Origin: Halogeometricum borinquense DSM 11551
GTDB taxonomy: Archaea > Halobacteriota > Halobacteria > Halobacteriales > Haloferacaceae
DNA: 32,000 bases
Direction: 5' to 3'
NCBI RefSeq assembly: GCF_000172995.2
Contig: NC_014729.1
Span: forward strand, 1,290,001 to 1,322,000
Position numbers and translations under genes: made by a program. The notes below the pieces were generated by a model. It saw only the letters and a list, made by a program, of their open reading frames with translations. It was not told the DNA's origin and searched no databases. Shown piece after piece: positions 4,630-28,889 of the stretch (within the stretch, counting starts at the first letter, position 1; each line of letters starts with the position of its first letter).

Positions 4630-4776
4630 ATGCGCACAGAAGAGGAGATACGTGAGCAGTACGAGTTCCTCGAAGAAGAACTGGCATCCGAGGAGATGCG
4701 CCACAGCGGCGTCAAAGAACTATTCACCCATTACAAGCGTGCGCTCGGGTGGGTTCTCGAAGAAGAACACATGTGA
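4630..4776 (+). CDS. Candidate small acidic protein (48 aa)
   Basis: It falls below the size cut-off of the ORF track and was read by hand: MRTEEEIREQYEFLEEELASEEMRHSGVKELFTHYKRALGWVLEEEHM. The composition is typical for a haloarchaeal cytoplasmic protein. It is divergent from the zinc-ribbon gene. There is no homology evidence. Confidence 0.35.
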   Translation: MRTEEEIREQYEFLEEELASEEMRHSGVKELFTHYKRALGWVLEEEHM

Positions 4777-4841
4777 CGTAATGCGATTACGCAATCGGCA
4801 ATCAGGACGTACGCCGGTATCTTTAAGTTTAACCGGCAAAT

Positions 4842-5240
4842 AGTTGCAGGTGACGCTTCGCTTTGGAGGGCCGAAGCGTCAGCGGGGACCAATTCAGGGC
4901 GGCAAGCATCCACGCGATTTTCGCGTGGCTTGCTTCCTTTTCCACGAACTCACACCGGTGAGCGACTGCTTCGTTCTGTCCCACATTCGACGCTCATACT
5001 CATCCCGTAGAAAACATTTCACCGCGAGAGACACTCATCTTCTACAGCTATTTCACACATCAAAGAGATGACGGCGGCGGGGTGTCCGATAGTTTGTCCC
5101 GTGGTGACTACGTGTCGATTAAATAACAGAAGTTTGACAGTGTTGCGGTAGCGAACACGACAAAAAGAGAAACCATACTTTTTATTACATTAATCATCAA
5201 ACGGAAGCTTCAGATTCCGCCTGCATACTCTCAGTTTGTA
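4842..5240 (+). mobile_element. Degenerate third copy (C) of the structured non-autonomous element family; the 3' boundary is uncertain
   Basis: The 5' end AGTTGCAGG aligns with AGGTTGAACAGG of copy B. Two hairpins follow: GACGCTTCG/CGAAGCGTC at 4851..4879 and CCACGCG/CGCGTGG at about 4910..4928. Next come CTTTTCC...GGTGAGCG, as in copy B, and CCCGTGGTGACTAC, which matches B's ACCGTGGGACTAC. No intact right-end hairpin is present. The region is AT-rich and has no credible ORF. Confidence 0.35.
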
Positions 5241-5299
5241 CGACCTAGCTCCGATATGTTTATTTCAATCAGACAATAAGGGGTGAATTGAATCTACCA

Positions 5300-5596
5300 A
5301 TGTACGACTTGACAGGATTTCAGCGAGACCTACTGTACGTTATTGCCGGGTTGGACGAACCTCACGGGCTTGCTATCAAAGAGGAACTCGAAGATTACTA
5401 CGAGAAGGAAATTCACCACGGGCGACTCTATCCGAATCTCGATACGCTTGTCGAAAAAGGACTCATCGAGAAGGGGCAACGTGACAGACGGACTAACTAT
5501 TACACGTTGACGCGTCGGGGGCGCAGAGAGATAAAGGCACGAAAGGAATGGGAGGGGGACTACATCGATATCGAGTACGGTGGCGTCCGAATCTAA
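5300..5596 (+). CDS. PadR-family transcriptional regulator
   Basis: Track ORF starts at a TTG at 5288, and I prefer the ATG at 5300 (MYDLTGFQRDLLYVIA). It has a PadR-like winged helix: HGLAIKEELEDYY...HHGRLYPNLDTLVEKGLIEKGQRDRRTNYYTLTRRGRREI. The gene is visibly less GC-rich than its neighbours. Confidence 0.85.
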   Translation: MYDLTGFQRDLLYVIAGLDEPHGLAIKEELEDYYEKEIHHGRLYPNLDTLVEKGLIEKGQRDRRTNYYTLTRRGRREIKARKEWEGDYIDIEYGGVRI

Positions 5597-15119: not shown

Positions 15120-16118
15120 ATGACGGAAACTCTGTTTTTAACGAGTGACGACGTGTCCGGATTGGCAACCCCGGCGGAGTTCGTTGACGCGGTTCGAGAC
15201 GGGTACCGGCAGCGCGGTGAGGGCGCGCCGGCCGAACCGCGGACGAAGCTCCCGAACGAGAACCCACCGGGCTTTTTCACGACGTACGCCGCCGTTCTGC
15301 CCGACACGGGTGCCATGGGCGGTTACATGTACAGTGCCGGGTTCGGCGGGCAGGACGCGTGGTTCATGACGCCCCTGTTCGACGCCGAGTCTGGCGAACC
15401 GATGGCGCTCATCGACGGCGCGAGTATGAATCCGTTCAAGACCGGCGCGGTCGGGGCGGTCGGCGTCGATGCGCTGGCACGCGACGATGCCGAGACGCTC
15501 GCTATCGTCGGCAGTGGCGCACAGGCGCGCGGACAACTCCGCGCCACCGCGGCGGTCCGTGACCTCGAAACCGTCTGGGTGTACTCCCCGACGAAAGAGA
15601 GCCGCGAGTCGTTCGCTGGTGAGATGGACCGCCGACTCGACGCCAGCGTCGCCGCCGTCGCCTCCTCCGCCGCTGCAATCGAGGGCGCGGACATCGTCAT
15701 CACGGCGACGAACGCCTCCGAACCCGTCTTCGACGGCGACCGTCTCGAACCGGGCACACACGTCACTGCGATGGGACAGTACGCGACCGACAAACGCGAA
15801 CTCGACGCGACGACCATCGAACGCGCGAAGTACGTGCCGGACCTCAGAGACCGCGTGACGCAGGACGCCGGGTCGTTCCTCCACGCGCTTGCGGAGGGCG
15901 TCGTGGATGAAGACCACGTCTACGCCGAACTCGGCGAGGTGATCGCGGGCAAAGTCGAAGGCCGCGAGGACGACGAGGAGATAACCGTCTTCGACAGCGG
16001 TGGAACCGGCATCGAAACCGTTGCCGGAGCGTATCTGCTCTACGAGAAGGCACAATCCGAAGGACTCGGGACGACTATCGACTTTGCTCCCGCGAGCGAG
16101 GCGTTGACCGGAGCGTGA
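15120..16118 (+). CDS. Ornithine cyclodeaminase / mu-crystallin family protein (archaeal alanine dehydrogenase-like)
   Basis: 332 aa with a Rossmann motif LAIVGSGAQARGQL and the family-typical ITATNASEPVF and HVTAMG segments. The TGA stop (16116..16118) lies inside the terminal nucleotides of element copy A. Confidence 0.9.
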   Translation: MTETLFLTSDDVSGLATPAEFVDAVRDGYRQRGEGAPAEPRTKLPNENPPGFFTTYAAVLPDTGAMGGYMYSAGFGGQDAWFMTPLFDAESGEPMALIDGASMNPFKTGAVGAVGVDALARDDAETLAIVGSGAQARGQLRATAAVRDLETVWVYSPTKESRESFAGEMDRRLDASVAAVASSAAAIEGADIVITATNASEPVFDGDRLEPGTHVTAMGQYATDKRELDATTIERAKYVPDLRDRVTQDAGSFLHALAEGVVDEDHVYAELGEVIAGKVEGREDDEEITVFDSGGTGIETVAGAYLLYEKAQSEGLGTTIDFAPASEALTGA

Positions 16119-16446
16119 CATCCTCCCGCGCCTAACGTCGCGGGCCTCCCACCCGGTGTTGGGCGGGCAGGTCAATCCTGAAGGTTGAGAGTGTAAGGTT
16201 TGCTGGACAGTCAGCCAGTGGCTCTGCCACGAAGCCGTTACTCGTACCCCGTAGGAGAGCTTCGAGTTATCTGATTGTTTAACGACTGTCGGCGTGGTCG
16301 GCTTACGTGTTTGATTTCGGCTCTCGCCGTGGCAAACACCGACTCAACTGCCAGTTCCCACGCACAACTCTGTGTGCAATGATTTGTGACTTAAATTGTC
16401 GGATTCATCTGGTGGCTAAAGCCACCAGTATCCTCCTTGAATCTCT
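16115..16446 (-). mobile_element. Copy A of the structured non-autonomous IS200/IS605-like element (332 nt)
   Basis: It fills the otherwise unexplained convergent spacer between the cyclodeaminase and pelota genes. Read on the minus strand it is TTAT|AGAGATTCAAGGAGGATAC-[CTGGTGGC ttta GCCACCAG]-GATG ... CCAACACCGGGTGGGAGG-[CCCGCG acgttagg CGCGGG]-AGGATGTCAC|. This is the same end architecture and shared blocks as copy B, with internal deletions. Confidence 0.55.
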
Positions 16447-16462
16447 ATAATCGCCCGGCGGT

Positions 16463-17530
16463 TCACTGCAGGCGGTAGCGGAGAATCGCCGCGATGCCGC
16501 CGAGGTTCTTCAACTGGCGGCCGGGGTCGAACTCCGAGGAGAAGACGGCGACGTCGCCGCCCTGCCGTTCGACAGTCTGGATGACCTCATTCACGTCTAC
16601 GTCCCACTCGCCTGCACCCTGTCGCTCTTCTCGGAGGCGTTCGTCGAGGACGAGAAGCGTCTCCACCGCGCCGAACTCGGCCGCTTCGGCGACTTCCTCG
16701 ATTCCGTAGGCGACTTTCTCGCCCGTCGAGATACCCTCCATCAGGTCGTCGATGAGGTCTGCTTCCTTGGAGATGCGCGTCTGCGTCTGCACTTCGTCCA
16801 CCGCGCCGCGTTTCAGCACCTCGTGGACTCCCCTGTCGCCGACGCTGGACGTATCCACGACGGTTATCTTGTCCACGACATCACGGTGGTTCTCCGCGAT
16901 GTAGTCGCGGGCGTCCTGCTTCGTGAAGCCGGGACCCGCGAGGATGATAGCGTCTACGTCCATCCGCGAGAGCGCCTTGCCGAGTTCGGCAAACAGTTCT
17001 GACCGCGGTCGGGCGTACTCTCCCTTCCCGGTCGGCGCAGTGAACGAGAAGCGCTCTTCGGTACCGTACTGTGCGACGGTATGGATGTGGGCTTCGCCCT
17101 CCTCGACGGTGGCGATGACCACATCGGGGTTCTCCGCGGCCTGCTCGGCCTCTTCGATGCGGTCGAGTTGGTCCGGCTTGAAGTGCTTCTCGATGGTCAC
17201 CTCGTCGTGTTCTTCGACGTTCAGCGTGTGATGGTGACCGAGTTGGTCCTCGCGGGAGCAATCGACGATTTCGCCGCCGACGCGGAGCCGGTTGGCAAAG
17301 CGGGCGAACTCCACGTCGCTGACGCTGATAGTGACGTGCATGTGTTCGCGTTGTCCACCAGTGTCTCGCATCTGGTCGTCGTCACGTTGGATGCGTCGGG
17401 TGGTGTCGCCGGAGACCAAATCGCCCGATTCGAGGACGTGCGAGAGATGCCAGAGGTCGTCCACGTTCTCGGGGACGAGCGTGATGCGTTCGCGGCCCTC
17501 CTCGCCGCGTCCGCGACTCGAAATGCGCAT
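16463..17530 (-). CDS. pelA: mRNA surveillance / ribosome rescue factor Pelota
   Basis: 355 aa with a Pelota N-terminal domain ([24 protein letters not shown]) and eRF1-like central and C-terminal domains ([24 protein letters not shown]). Confidence 0.95.
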
Positions 17531-17581: not shown

Positions 17582-18286
17582 TTAGTAGTCCGGTTCAGCG
17601 ACGTCGCGTCGCTTCTTGCCGAGTCCTTCGGCGAATCCGCGGCCGAACAGGTAGTAGGTGACCACCTGTGTGTAAAACAGGATGAAGAAGCCGACGATGA
17701 CAATGAAGAGCAGCCCTCCGATGAAACTGAGAATAGACCCCACAACGAGGACCAGCACCCACGCGACGAAGTACTCGCTCGTCATGGCTCCCGAAACGAT
17801 AGTCGAGATGTCGAACGCCGCACCGAGAGAGCCCTCGATGGCAAAGTTAGCCTGCGCGGCGGGAATGAAGTAGCTGACAACGATGCTGAACAGCCCGATG
17901 ACAAGGATACCGAGAAATCCGACGATACCCAGCGCGGGAGCGGCACCGACTGTAACGCCCGGTTCGGGACCGGGAGCACCGGCCGAGAGTGAGTTGCCGA
18001 TTCCGAGAACGATAGACAGCGCAATCATCGGGATGAGCACGATGAGGCTGTAGACGAAATTAATGATCACCAGCTTGAGACCGTCCACGATGAGCTCCCC
18101 CCAATTGGTGAACGACGGCGCGGCCGTCTCACCCTTTGCCGCGCCTCTGAGGACGCGAACCATATACCCCTGTATGATGAATATCGGGATAATGAAAACG
18201 AAGAGGAGGCTGAGAACCCCACCGATGAGTATCGTCGGTATCCAGTCTGAACTGTTCCGCGGGTAGGACAGGGCGTCTCCTAACAT
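17582..18286 (-). CDS. DUF4013-family membrane protein (paralog 1)
   Basis: The N-terminus LSYPRNSSDWIPTILIGGVLSLLFVFIIPIFIIQGYMVRVLR and the following TM segments match the DUF4013 pattern as I recall it. It is clearly paralogous to the adjacent gene. Confidence 0.8.
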   Translation of the reverse strand: MLGDALSYPRNSSDWIPTILIGGVLSLLFVFIIPIFIIQGYMVRVLRGAAKGETAAPSFTNWGELIVDGLKLVIINFVYSLIVLIPMIALSIVLGIGNSLSAGAPGPEPGVTVGAAPALGIVGFLGILVIGLFSIVVSYFIPAAQANFAIEGSLGAAFDISTIVSGAMTSEYFVAWVLVLVVGSILSFIGGLLFIVIVGFFILFYTQVVTYYLFGRGFAEGLGKKRRDVAEPDY

Positions 18287-18346
18287 CGGACGAACCGACT
18301 CCCGAGGATAAGTTAACTCTTTATCAAAAATTGCGAACGGGACAGC

Positions 18347-19063
18347 TCAGACGGCGGCCTGTTCGTCGGGTTGGCCCTCGCCCTCCTGCATCTCGACATC
18401 GTGGAGTTCGCCCCACGCGTTGCCGATGATGTAGTACGCGGCTACCGCGGCGTAGAAGCCGAGGAACCCGCCGGCGATGAAGCCGAGCGCGGGAATGGCA
18501 TTCAGGATGCTCGCAACCAGCCCTGCGACGAATATCACGGCAAAGCCGCTCACCCATGCCGTGAAGTACTTGCCTGAGACGAGGACCGAGCGCAAGTCGC
18601 CCACAGAGAACGCCTTGCCGAACTGGTCGGTCTCAGCGAAGTTGGCTATCGCCGCCGGGATGATGTACGCGGCCACGAGGCCGAGAACGAACGATACGAG
18701 GAGGCCGAGAAGGACTCCTGCTCCGCCGGCTATGGACAGTCCGCCGGACCTCGCTGCGTTCCCTGCGACGATGGCGAAAATGCTTCCACCAACTAATACA
18801 CCCGCGATGAGTGACGGGATAAACCCGTAGATGAAGGCGATAACCATGGCTTTCAGGCCGTCTACTGCCATGTCGCCCCAGTCGTCGAACTCCGGCGGTT
18901 CCTCGATACCGTGCATCGTCCGACGAATGACGCGGACGAGATACCCCGCGACCAGTATCGTGGGGACGATGAGGACGCTCAGCAGGCTAAGGATGCCGCC
19001 GATGAGGACCGTCTTTACCCAGTCCTCGTCGTTGCGTAAGTAGTTGAGTGACTCGTTGATCAT
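18347..19063 (-). CDS. DUF4013-family membrane protein (paralog 2)
   Basis: LNYLRNDEDWVKTVLIGGILSLLSVLIVPTILVAGYLVRVIR is collinear with paralog 1 along its whole length. Confidence 0.8.
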   Translation of the reverse strand: MINESLNYLRNDEDWVKTVLIGGILSLLSVLIVPTILVAGYLVRVIRRTMHGIEEPPEFDDWGDMAVDGLKAMVIAFIYGFIPSLIAGVLVGGSIFAIVAGNAARSGGLSIAGGAGVLLGLLVSFVLGLVAAYIIPAAIANFAETDQFGKAFSVGDLRSVLVSGKYFTAWVSGFAVIFVAGLVASILNAIPALGFIAGGFLGFYAAVAAYYIIGNAWGELHDVEMQEGEGQPDEQAAV

Positions 19064-27126: not shown

Positions 27127-27926
27127 GGCGGCATCACCGCCGCATCGGCCGTTCGAGCGAAGATTCTCATTAGCTTTCAGTCGCGTCGTTTCGAGGTTAA
27201 GGGTGTCGCTCACTAGACGCGGCCGACAAGCTGCGATTCGAGTCACCGAAATGCCACCTCGGCAAGGTTTCTCGCGGACCGAACACCGACTTACAGCGTG
27301 AGGCACGGTTATCCGTCCATGCCACATAATAGCATGATAACGGGAGAGACGATGACCGACACGATAGCTATCGAAGAACTGCTACGGTACGCCGCCGAGC
27401 GACGACTGCTTCGGGAGGAACTCGACGACGACAGACTCGATACCGACACGATGATCGACGTGGTCCGGCACGGACCTGTCTTGGAGACACTGTACGGTCA
27501 GTCGTTGGATCGGCGAGATGTGGAGGACTCCCTCGGCGTCTCGCGGGCGACGAGTCACCGACTAACCCGGTGGCTGGTCGAGGAGGGACTTGCCGAGCGT
27601 CGGGATGGAACGTTCTCGCTCACCGGCAAGGGAGAAGTGTACGCCGACGAACTCCTCAGACTGGATCGAAACCTCCGTGCCGCAGAGCGGTTGGCTCCAC
27701 TGCTCGACTGCATCTGTGAGACGCACCGCGAGTTCGTGGTGGAACCGTTTGCTGATGCAACGATCACCGAGGCGACGCCGAACGACCCGTATCGACCGGT
27801 CTCGCGCTTTCTCGAACTGCTTGCGGAGAGCGACACGTTCCGCGGGTTCAACACGACGCACGTCGTTCCGCCGGGAACACCCGGAGCCGAAGACCAACTG
27901 TTCGACACGGACGACGCCGAATTTAT

Positions 27927-28442
27927 AGGTTGAACAGGCGCAATACCACGCCGTGAACGGCGTGGATACGCGCCGTCACTTGTGGTGACGGCCACCGTTG
28001 AAATGCTTTTCCGAGTTCCCTACCGTGATGTTTAATTGACAGGTGAGCGTAGTAGCCGGTAGGAATCGGTCGGAACGGAGCGGATTCCGAACTGTCCTTC
28101 GGAGGCGGCCTGTCCGCCCATGTAACGAGGCAGTATCCGAAAGGGCAGTCGGTGAACGCACATTCCAGAAGAGTGTGTCGACGTGCCGACTGCTGAAAGC
28201 GAGCACCACGATACCCCCGACTCCACTGACACCTGCTGGCGTCCCTGTGGCAAAAACAACACCGGGACGCCGTACATGATCAAGGATAGGGGTAACGGCC
28301 ACTTGGCATGGCCAGCAGTCCACCAGTCCAACACCGTGGGACTACCCGTACCCGAAAGGGCTGGTAGTCCGCTGATTGGACTGCGAACCTGAAACTCCCA
28401 CCGCTCGGGATTCCTCCGCGTTCACGCGGAGGAGGATGTCAA
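27927..28442 (+). mobile_element. Copy B of the structured non-autonomous IS200/IS605-like element (516 nt; boundaries +/-1 nt)
   Basis: The left flank is TTAT and the element starts AGGTTGAACAGG. Two perfect left-end hairpins follow: CCACGCCG tgaa CGGCGTGG (27946..27965) and GCCGTCAC ttgtg GTGACGGC (27972..27992). The right-end hairpin is CCTCCGCG ttca CGCGGAGG (28413..28432), followed by AGGATGTCAA. It has no credible ORF, no terminal inverted repeats and no target duplication. It interrupts a gene in frame-neutral fashion. Confidence 0.65.
28316..28442 (+). ncRNA. Putative omega-RNA (reRNA)-like structured module at the right end of copy B (hypothetical)
   Basis: It contains nested perfect helices. 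The outer helix is CAGTCCAA (28324..28331) with TTGGACTG (28376..28383). Inside it, GGACTACC (28339..28346) pairs with GGTAGTCC (28363..28370) and encloses CCC-GAAA-GGG (28351..28360). The terminal hairpin is 28413..28432. Its position and orientation match where TnpB guide-RNA scaffolds lie in IS200/IS605 elements. No expression data are available. Confidence 0.3.
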
Positions 28443-28707
28443 CACTGTTCCGTCGGTTGCCGACCACTTCATTACCGGCGAGAAAATGGCGGCCTCCTTC
28501 GAACGCGGCCACTTGCAACTCCGAACTCGGGAGGCGCTGCCGTACGGGTTAGCGATATTCGACGAACGGGTAGGCGTCGGCGGCTACGACGACGAGACGG
28601 GCACGTTGCGCGTGTTCGTCGATACCGATACCGACGGCGCACGGCGGTGGGCCGAAGGCGTATACGAAATGTATCGGCAGGCCTCGGAACCAGTCAGCGT
28701 AGCGGGC

Positions 28708-28782
28708 GAGTCGAACGATGCGCCAAATGGGTCAAACGACGCACCAGATGAGTCGAACGGTGCGCCAGATGAATCGAACGAC
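28708..28782. repeat. 21-nt tandem repeat, about 3.6 units (GAGTCGAACGATGCGCCAAAT-like)
   Basis: Read directly. The units start at 28708, 28729, 28750 and 28771 (the last is partial). They encode ESNDAPN/GSNDAPD/ESNGAPD/ESND in the acidic tail of the regulator fragment. Confidence 0.85.
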
Positions 28783-28889
28783 ACGGGAACGGCAACCAGC
28801 GCACAGTCAGATGGTGCAACAGCCCCTGATACCTCCGCCGACAGCAGTGGCTGACGAGTCGAGGAACGGGACGGGAGAGAGCGTCGAGT

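Follow-up and report, generated by a model that had tools for sequence, protein, structure and literature searches.

The first catalogue of PATEs (palindrome-associated transposable elements) derived from IS605-type elements came from Haloquadratum walsbyi (Dyall-Smith et al. 2011, PMC3119063). According to Meers et al. (2023, PMC10055086), they frequently encode omegaRNAs whose use requires a TnpB acting in trans. In Halobacterium salinarum, expression of a PATE-derived noncoding RNA (ncRNA), VNG_R0052, has been shown (Gomes-Filho et al. 2015, PMC4615843). The name omegaRNA is now applied to sot0042, the sense-overlapping transcript of IS1341-type tnpB genes. IS608 of Helicobacter pylori, a bacterial element that encodes both tnpA and tnpB, has TTAC as its target and TCAA as its right-end cleavage site. 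Here, we analyzed a 32,000-nt stretch of Halogeometricum borinquense DSM 11551 (contig NC_014729.1, positions 1,290,001 to 1,322,000, hereafter the window), in which a segment of the minus strand, 16115..16446, named element A, lies between an ornithine cyclodeaminase gene and the convergent pelota gene. Our reading, to which we give a probability of about 0.85, is that element A is a PATE that inserted on the A-TAA stop codon of the cyclodeaminase gene and whose own terminus supplies the new stop, as had been proposed in an earlier note on this DNA.

The stop codon at the cyclodeaminase–pelota junction

On the minus strand, the junction reads ...CTGCAG TGA ACCGCCGGGCGA TTAT / AGAGATTCAAGGAGGATACTGGTGGCTTTAGCCACCAG ... 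CCCGCGACGTTAGGCGCGGGAGGATGTCAC / GCTCCGGTCAACGCC..., with slashes at the two ends of element A, and the right end at 16115 has the sequence ...GGATGTCAC. The cyclodeaminase frame runs into this terminus and stops there (Table 1). In silico deletion of the segment leaves the frame as ...ACC GGA GC/A TAA TCG, with a 12-nt spacer and then the pelota stop, in place of the present cyclodeaminase–pelota spacer of 344 nt. The coordinates, the ALTGA-TGA end, this excision product and the expansion of the spacer from 12 to 344 nt, all claimed in the earlier note, with about 345 nt for the present spacer, were found in the sequence. The geometry is dictated by the end motifs: the complement of TTAT is A-TAA and those of TCAC and TCAA are G-TGA and T-TGA in the same phase, so that insertion on the A-TAA stop of a convergent gene rebuilds a stop.

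The boundaries of element A were established from its family. In haloarchaeal plasmids, BLASTN found 41 places in 30 records, with alignments that end at the equivalent of 16115 or begin at TTAT. When element A was aligned with eight plasmid copies, all were found to end ...GGAGGATGTCAC with unrelated flanks beyond, and the left end directly follows TTAT in four of them (L006, L008, L013, and L009; L numbers designate the loci compared). A scan of metagenomes with a conserved internal motif gave 76 stretches, from hypersaline metagenomes and in differing contexts, and a profile search gave 74 metagenomic matches that reach the right end, 54 of them unique, with flanks all different. The GTCAC terminus is nearly invariant among these 54 and the eight plasmid copies, a few ending GTCAA instead. 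At the other end, about 30 of the 40 unique full-length metagenomic copies with a readable upstream region begin directly after TTAT, and the left-end type of the window (AGAGATTCAAGGAGRATACTGGTGGC...) recurs in many metagenomic copies. Insertion 3' of TTAT without target-site duplication is seen in the window, in copy B (a second PATE of the window, described below) and in these approximately 30 metagenomic copies, no repeat being present in the flanks. Element A has no terminal inverted repeats, and a sub-terminal hairpin is present at each end. For both elements, the earlier note gives the 'GATGTCAC' terminus and the TCA(A/C) boundary rule correctly. Members of the family occur in Halogeometricum, Natrinema, Salinirubellus, Natronorubrum, Haloplanus, and other genera, while its core motif has no match in viral contigs.

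The position of the stop codon was compared in 80 orthologous loci from other haloarchaeal species, with protein identities of 72–86%. All 80 proteins end ...LTG-X-stop at the same length of 332 aa, X being E, Q, K, R, D, or N, and all three stop codons are used; the reconstructed TAA coincides with the orthologous stop position in 80/80. Together with the family-wide boundaries, this agreement bears out the proposal that the TTAT target was the complement of the original TAA stop region. Three orthologues (L020, L024, and L078) carry GAA-TAA at this position, which is the TTAT target on the opposite strand. Pelota is the convergent neighbor in most Haloferacales, with spacers from 20 nt up (20 in L020, 29 in L090, and 33 in L066). 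The earlier note had pointed to related loci as the place to look for an empty site with a TAA stop and a short spacer: the stop and the spacers of 20–33 nt were encountered, the empty site itself was not. Element A is absent from all 80 loci, searched within 4 kb, and it is therefore not a syntenically conserved ncRNA locus, the finding that the note had named as one that would overturn its claim.

All four H. borinquense lineages examined carry element A at this site with the same TTAT and GTCAC junctions. The cyclodeaminase and pelota proteins are identical in the H. borinquense assemblies GCA_000337855.1 and GCA_004150395.1, and a pelota variant of the same 90% cluster also bears the name H. 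borinquense at NCBI. In the most divergent lineage, CP048739.1, which is 96.5% identical across the locus, element A occupies the same site and the protein ends ...ALTGE, encoded by GAG TGA. Since the insertion is common to lineages that differ to this extent, it is old. The ALTGE end and the outgroups indicate that the ancestral site, as reconstructed from the sequences, was probably GGA GAA TAA and that the alanine of the window (GCG) is a later E-to-A substitution. The predicted allele of an empty site is then ...GGA G(A/C)A TAA TCGCCCGGCGGT TCA.... The insertion itself left the length and the sequence of the protein unchanged, as had been claimed; the original last codon GCA that went with this claim is less likely than GAA.

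RNA-like core, kinship with TnpB elements, and copy B

Element A encodes no transposase: its only open reading frame (ORF) is an antisense one of 47 aa, and no match to TnpA or TnpB was found in it. Its core is conserved and RNA-like, and the segment is structured (z = −3.2). The consensus structure was evaluated on 30 sequences with pairwise identities below 93%. Its 49 pairs are formed in 96.7% of cells, compared with 33–47% in slid controls, and compensatory cells number 131, compared with 16–24. Part of this conserved structure could serve as single-stranded DNA for TnpA and not as RNA. A permissive Rfam search aligned 16146..16272 (−) with the full sot0042 model (RF02656, positions 1–174) at 24.3 bits and E = 2e-4; at the gathering threshold, Rfam gave nothing in the whole window. 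The motif GAGTAACGGCTTCGTGGCAGAGCCA of element A corresponds to the most conserved block of the sot0042 alignment. About 105 nt located 5' of the omegaRNA-like part of the core are specific to the PATE family of element A. The flank in the guide position is unique in the window, and the flanks differ in every copy.

Two sets of TnpB elements are related to element A. Over its final 38 nt, element A shares 89% identity with the right end of elements of the ISHvo18 and ISNma12 families, which carry tnpA and tnpB and whose ORFs Pfam assigns to Y1_Tnp and TnpB. BLASTX gave nothing meaningful when remnants of the ISHvo18/ISNma12 TnpB were sought in element A, and SNGFVAEP, encoded in the motif above, matches a different TnpB lineage. 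The 3' ~155 nt of element A have counterparts at the metagenomic loci L113, L153, L171, and L178, in a stretch that includes the 3' end of the TnpB gene and continues past it. In these four, TnpB genes lie directly upstream of partial core matches (positions ~108–265 of the hidden Markov model), and in L153 and L171 the homologous sequence extends into the 3' end of the gene. The ORF of L153 contains the OrfB_IS605 and Cas12f1-like TNB domains of Pfam. Taken together, these features identify element A, on sequence grounds, as a PATE, that is, an apparent miniature IS200/IS605 element reduced to a left end, a right end, and a guide-RNA (omegaRNA/sotRNA) module. The element class is already known, and element A is a further member with a standard insertion.

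Copy B is a longer PATE that splits a FilR1-like transcription regulator gene (HVO_A0261_N and FilR1_middle domains; 27298..28854). The copy-B family aligns from TTAT to TCAA in 177 places of 75 plasmid records. The length of copy B is a multiple of three, and FilR1_middle is matched at positions 1–40 at the end of the upstream ORF and 61–127 at the start of the downstream ORF, so that excision under the same boundary rule rejoins one domain, in agreement with the earlier note. The idea that A and B are copies of one element did not hold: they have their end architecture in common and no BLAST-detectable similarity, and they belong to two different PATE families. Unlike the cyclodeaminase, the regulator is truncated, its upstream half running two codons into copy B before a TGA. 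Three tandem 21-nt repeats in the 3' part of the split gene (28708..28782) encode an acidic repeat (…ESNDAPNGSNDAPDESNGAPDESND…).

Within the window, neither the repeat finder nor BLASTN found a second copy of element A. The Logan contigs of three H. borinquense read sets (L003–L005 and L100–L102) all stop at 16160 or 16420, inside element A, which suggests further near-identical copies elsewhere in the genome.

Table 1 Features of the window discussed in the text and loci at which an annotated or inferred stop codon lies in an element terminus
Feature	Position	Strand	Remarks
Ornithine cyclodeaminase/mu-crystallin family gene (PF02423)	15120..16118	+	332 aa, ends ...ALTGA-TGA, stop inside element A
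Cyclodeaminase stop TGA	16116..16118	+	Wholly within the terminal GTCAC of element A
Pelota gene	16463..17530	−	Convergent to the cyclodeaminase gene, unaffected by the insertion
Element A, putative non-autonomous IS200/IS605-type element (PATE)	16115..16446	−	332 nt, no transposase ORF; boundaries from family alignments
TTAT target tetranucleotide, expected target-adjacent motif (TAM)	16447..16450	−	Directly 5' of the left end; + strand ATAA, read as the remnant of the original A-TAA stop
Right-end terminal GTCAC	16115..16119	−	Complement gives G (third base of the last codon) and the TGA stop
Original spacer between the two stop codons	16451..16462		12 nt, read from the sequence; 11 nt in the sister lineage
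Sub-terminal right-end hairpin CCCGCGAC-GTTA-GGCGCGGG	16125..16144	−	Compensatory changes in 5/8 pairs of the 30-sequence alignment
Left-end hairpin CTGGTGGC-TTTA-GCCACCAG	16409..16428	−	Perfect 8-bp stem
Conserved, structured RNA-like core	16115..16376	−	3' ~155 nt resemble the omegaRNA scaffold of TnpB insertion sequences
Motif GAGTAACGGCTTCGTGGCAGAGCCA	16219..16243	−	Remnant of a TnpB C-terminal coding region; SNGFVAEP, compared with SNGCVAQP in real TnpBs
Flank, would-be guide of a read-out omegaRNA, GCTCCGGTCAACGCCT	16099..16114	−	Antisense to the last cyclodeaminase codons; deduced from its position 3' of the right end
Copy B, PATE of a different family	27927..28442	+	516 nt; follows TTAT 27923..27926 and ends ...GGATGTCAA; splits FilR1-like regulator gene
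Copy-A family and full-length relatives, stop in terminus			L011 (GT61, 389 aa); L097 (SDR, 242 aa); L095 (DUF3006); L094 (hypothetical)
Copy-A family, metagenomic, stop in terminus			L121 (diphthamide synthase); L173 (PGF-CTERM glycoprotein)
Copy-B family, stop in terminus			L179 (MgtC/SapB); L180 (helix-turn-helix); L181 (DsbB-like); L182 (hypothetical)

Several other sequences were inspected as possible elements or copies. Five further matches to GGAKGTCAM in the window lie in coding sequence and have no right-end hairpins, and they were rejected. A low-GC stretch at 4630..5300 (44–46%) contains a 48-aa ORF (4631..4776) that ends with a TGA within GTCAC, after a short hairpin, GCGTAATCGCATTACGTCAC (−); about 350 nt beyond its end lies a TTAT (5124..5127, −), with several strong hairpins in between. 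The interval 4777..5123, bounded by TTAT and GTCAC, was not called as a third element, since it has only two short plasmid matches (Haloarcula and Halorubrum); it could represent an ncRNA or a further PATE in decay. An apparent 94-nt tandem duplication of 16269..16362 in AOHT01000012.1 (L001, 4150..4340) is joined by N and was discarded as a scaffolding artifact. In Natrinema sp. SYSU A 869, the annotated coding sequence of a 514-aa 'SDR family oxidoreductase' (L008, 1377..2921) reads across a PATE copy; the insertion probably lengthened or broke the gene, which would then be wrongly annotated as intact. Just past pelota, two adjacent paralogous genes for DUF4013 membrane proteins (234 and 238 aa, 17582..19063) are kept in all H. 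borinquense strains seen. A tRNA scan found none.

Present state of the insertion, its recurrence, and alternative explanations

Several observations weigh against our reading or limit parts of it. An empty site was found neither in the orthologous loci nor in the H. borinquense lineages or the metagenomes, where the predicted 24-mer of the empty site has no match in the contigs, and the pre-insertion sequence is therefore a reconstruction. In H. pallidum, the closest other species, ~540 nt of apparently coding sequence separate the two genes. No TnpA or TnpB gene was found in the window, the only region scanned for them. The sot0042 score of 24.3 bits is below the gathering threshold of 88, and the TATA-like sequence AATTTAAG (16390..16397) is conserved only within the left-end subtype of element A. 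Transcription of the element, its internal promoter, and its use of a guide are all inferred. Finally, element A is 92.5% identical between CP048739.1 and the window, compared with 98.5% for pelota and 96.7% for the cyclodeaminase, and at this site it may be a decaying fossil that is no longer mobile.

This last possibility, that the insertion is by now immobile and without function and drifts as intergenic DNA, is a serious one, which we place a little short of even odds. The element's fixation at one shared site in the four lineages examined, its faster divergence relative to the two flanking genes, the substitutions that CP048739.1 carries in the left-end hairpin and in the GGATGTCAC terminus, and the lack of TnpA and TnpB in the window would all be expected of such a relic. 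In the copy of the window, nevertheless, the left-end stem is perfect, the right-end hairpin is intact and the terminus is that of the family consensus, the family shows structure-preserving covariation, and the contig breaks inside the element suggest other near-identical genomic copies.

The locus is arranged differently in GCA_004150395.1, a 99.7%-identical strain, where the cyclodeaminase and pelota genes are ~88 kb apart in the same orientation (L002, 4040..4160; L099, 4060..4290). There, a junction links the first 55 nt of the right end of element A with the final ~105 nt of a copy-B-like element, and the left end of element A is joined across a 10-N gap to the copy-B-like element at its left end. 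The arrangement is consistent with an inversion having its breakpoints in two PATEs near a shared near-palindrome (CCCAACACCGGGTGGG); it may also be an assembly artifact, one junction crossing a scaffold gap.

The insertion on a stop codon is not unique to the window. Counting short genes and the window, stops supplied by an element terminus were found in at least 11 cases (Table 1). In L121, positions 4–217 of the 219 of the Pfam profile are matched, ending four residues before the stop, and in L173 the PGF-CTERM is located at the very C-terminus. At L094 and L095 (2532..2539 in both), which are annotated full-length tnpA and tnpB elements of the ISHvo18/ISNma12 type, the annotated stop of the neighbor is the terminal TCA. 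Where the end is TCAC, replacing A by G at the third base leaves the residue unchanged in all cases seen except L121, where TGA becomes TGG and one Trp is added. At TCAA ends, the last residue may change, from E to D or Q to H, or a stop may become Tyr; the codon predicted for L094 before the insertion is TAA, which would mean a gain of one Tyr. The well-supported cases with an ORF of at least 100 aa number six among ~92 copies surveyed. As a baseline, 16 of the 910 TTAT sites (1.8%) in 694 kb of haloarchaeal DNA overlap a TAA that terminates an ORF of 100 aa or more called with confidence, and terminus-supplied stops are several-fold above it. In the metagenomic copies, long open frames end at the terminal TGA in 8/54, and in 6 and 4 in the other frames; Pfam confirms only two of the eight, and another three resemble genuine proteins. 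Raw ORF length thus does not discriminate, and the enrichment is not to be overstated. Its simplest reading is a survival filter, in which insertions within genes are lost and those on stop codons are harmless. The main text of PMC3119063 makes no mention of overlap with stop codons. Although elegant and seemingly seldom discussed, the property follows from the end motifs and is no new mechanism.

The same enrichment can be taken to mean that the TTAT/TCAC pair is itself kept by selection, the A-TAA stops of convergent genes offering safe sites for a silent landing and the antisense guide modulating the 3' end of the host mRNA or convergent termination. We consider this unlikely. By geometry, the guide is always antisense to the gene's 3' end, and one sotRNA of H. 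salinarum is antisense to a neighboring 3' untranslated region with anticorrelated expression (PMC4615843), but purifying selection against in-gene insertions would produce the same excess, ~85% of the copies are off stop codons, and TCAA ends change or add the last residue (E to D, Q to H, +Y), so that silence is not general. Selection for the site could also be invoked for a related PATE of the same 3' family in Natrinema thermotolerans (L009, CP031304.1, 1501..1780), which is found 28 nt downstream from where the orthologous cyclodeaminase stops and in the same orientation. The cyclodeaminase of L009 ends ALTGN-TAG. The PATE there is, however, of a different left-end and right-end subtype and is off the stop. 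The chance of such a coincidence for the window gene was estimated at roughly 2%, and none of the 76 metagenomic loci has another cyclodeaminase neighbor. Homing was rejected as its cause, since the subtypes differ and only seven of the first nine nucleotides of the flank are the same as in the window; the Natrinema copy looks like an independent event.

A third explanation holds that the TGA is native and that element A begins just downstream of it, with nothing regenerated; it would predict an empty site GGA GAG TGA followed by ATAATCGCC. Many orthologues do end GAG TGA (...GGC GAG TGA in H. pallidum), much as the window ends GCG TGA and the sister lineage GAG TGA. This explanation is nonetheless highly improbable: GTCAC is the nearly invariant last pentanucleotide of more than 60 copies with unrelated flanks, TnpB-encoding relatives included, insertion of IS200/IS605 elements makes no duplication and the left end abuts TTAT, and a native TGA would leave the element without its cleavage motif and the ATAA at 16447..16450 unexplained. 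That the segment is a conserved, non-mobile ncRNA gene of the cyclodeaminase–pelota locus, as its structure, its presence at this position in all H. borinquense genomes seen and the relative beside the Natrinema orthologue might suggest, is scarcely credible given its absence from all 80 orthologous loci of other species and the dozens of unrelated contexts in which its relatives occur, with sharp TTAT and GTCAC boundaries.

Proposed mechanism and comparison with known systems

A PATE insertion on the A-TAA stop could proceed by the known peel-and-paste route. A Y1 transposase (TnpA) encoded elsewhere in the genome would insert the top single strand of the element immediately 3' of TTAT, without target duplication. 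At the cyclodeaminase gene, the sequences show that TTAT was the complement of A-TAA, that is, of the last base of the final sense codon and the TAA stop, and the terminal ...GTCAC places G-TGA in phase on the gene strand: the third base changes from A to G, almost always silently, and a new stop is in place at once. Excision by TnpA would yield a circular single-strand junction in which GTCAC is joined to AGAGATTC. A transcript started at an internal promoter and reading through the right end might provide an omegaRNA with the flank GCUCCGGUCAACGCCU as its guide, and TnpB acting in trans would then cut the vacated site of TTAT and flank after excision, the element being restored by recombination. 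The occupied site would be protected from TnpB because GTCAC replaces the TAM. Since the regeneration of the stop is automatic from the motifs, convergent stop codons would be among the few harmless TTAT sites of a compact GC-rich genome, and insertions would therefore recur there.

For haloarchaeal annotation, this means that the stops of some ordinary genes, such as those for the cyclodeaminase, a glycosyltransferase, an SDR, a diphthamide synthase, MgtC, and a DsbB-like protein, are supplied by the ends of unannotated mobile elements. Such genes can gain or change their last residue upon arrival or departure of an element. Tolerated convergent stop sites also help to explain the persistence of PATEs in compact GC-rich genomes where TTAT is rare. 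In addition, two families with exact boundaries form a data set of natural combinations of TAM, guide, and scaffold for archaeal TnpB systems.

As described for the PATEs of Haloquadratum (PMC3119063), element A encodes no protein, lacks inverted terminal repeats and target duplication, and has near-terminal palindromes. Both have a conserved 5' targeting sequence of 4–5 nt and a conserved 3' terminal oligonucleotide, and both share their ends with IS605-type transposons, from which they are thought to be derived by deletion of the core (PMC3119063). Element A differs from them in belonging to another sequence family. Its 3' ~155 nt align over the full sot0042 model, with the GAGUAACGG...GGCA...GCCA block and the right-end hairpin in common, and by the Rfam criterion it is not a member (24.3 compared with 88 bits). 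As in sotRNA, the omegaRNA-like part occupies the 3' end of element A and is oriented into the flank. VNG_R0052, which is expressed, has the same makeup, a left end joined to a right end with tnpB missing. Relative to TnpB-encoding elements, element A has the extra conserved 5' block of ~105 nt.

The motifs of IS608 follow the same logic, their complements, GTAA and TTGA, each carrying a stop triplet at offset 1, and by this analogy the stop-regenerating geometry is probably a family trait. We know of no report that describes stop-codon regeneration for IS608. The right ends of the ISHvo18-family element of Haloferax gibbonsii and the ISNma12-family element of Natrialba magadii, 89% identical to element A over the last 38 nt, also provide the stop of the convergent neighbor through the terminal TCA in both annotated copies. 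These two elements are autonomous (Y1_Tnp and TnpB) and end GGTCAA, and they have nothing else in common with element A. In its predicted organization, element A resembles the PATE-like elements of Geobacillus stearothermophilus (PMC10055086), which consist of a minimal left end, right end, and guide-RNA module. In the model proposed for them (PMC10055086), TnpA mobilizes the element in trans, the guide RNA requires TnpB in trans, and the TAM is the TnpA target; the same logic may apply, by analogy, to element A, which differs from them in being archaeal, in having TTAT as its TAM, and in carrying the terminal motif TCAC.

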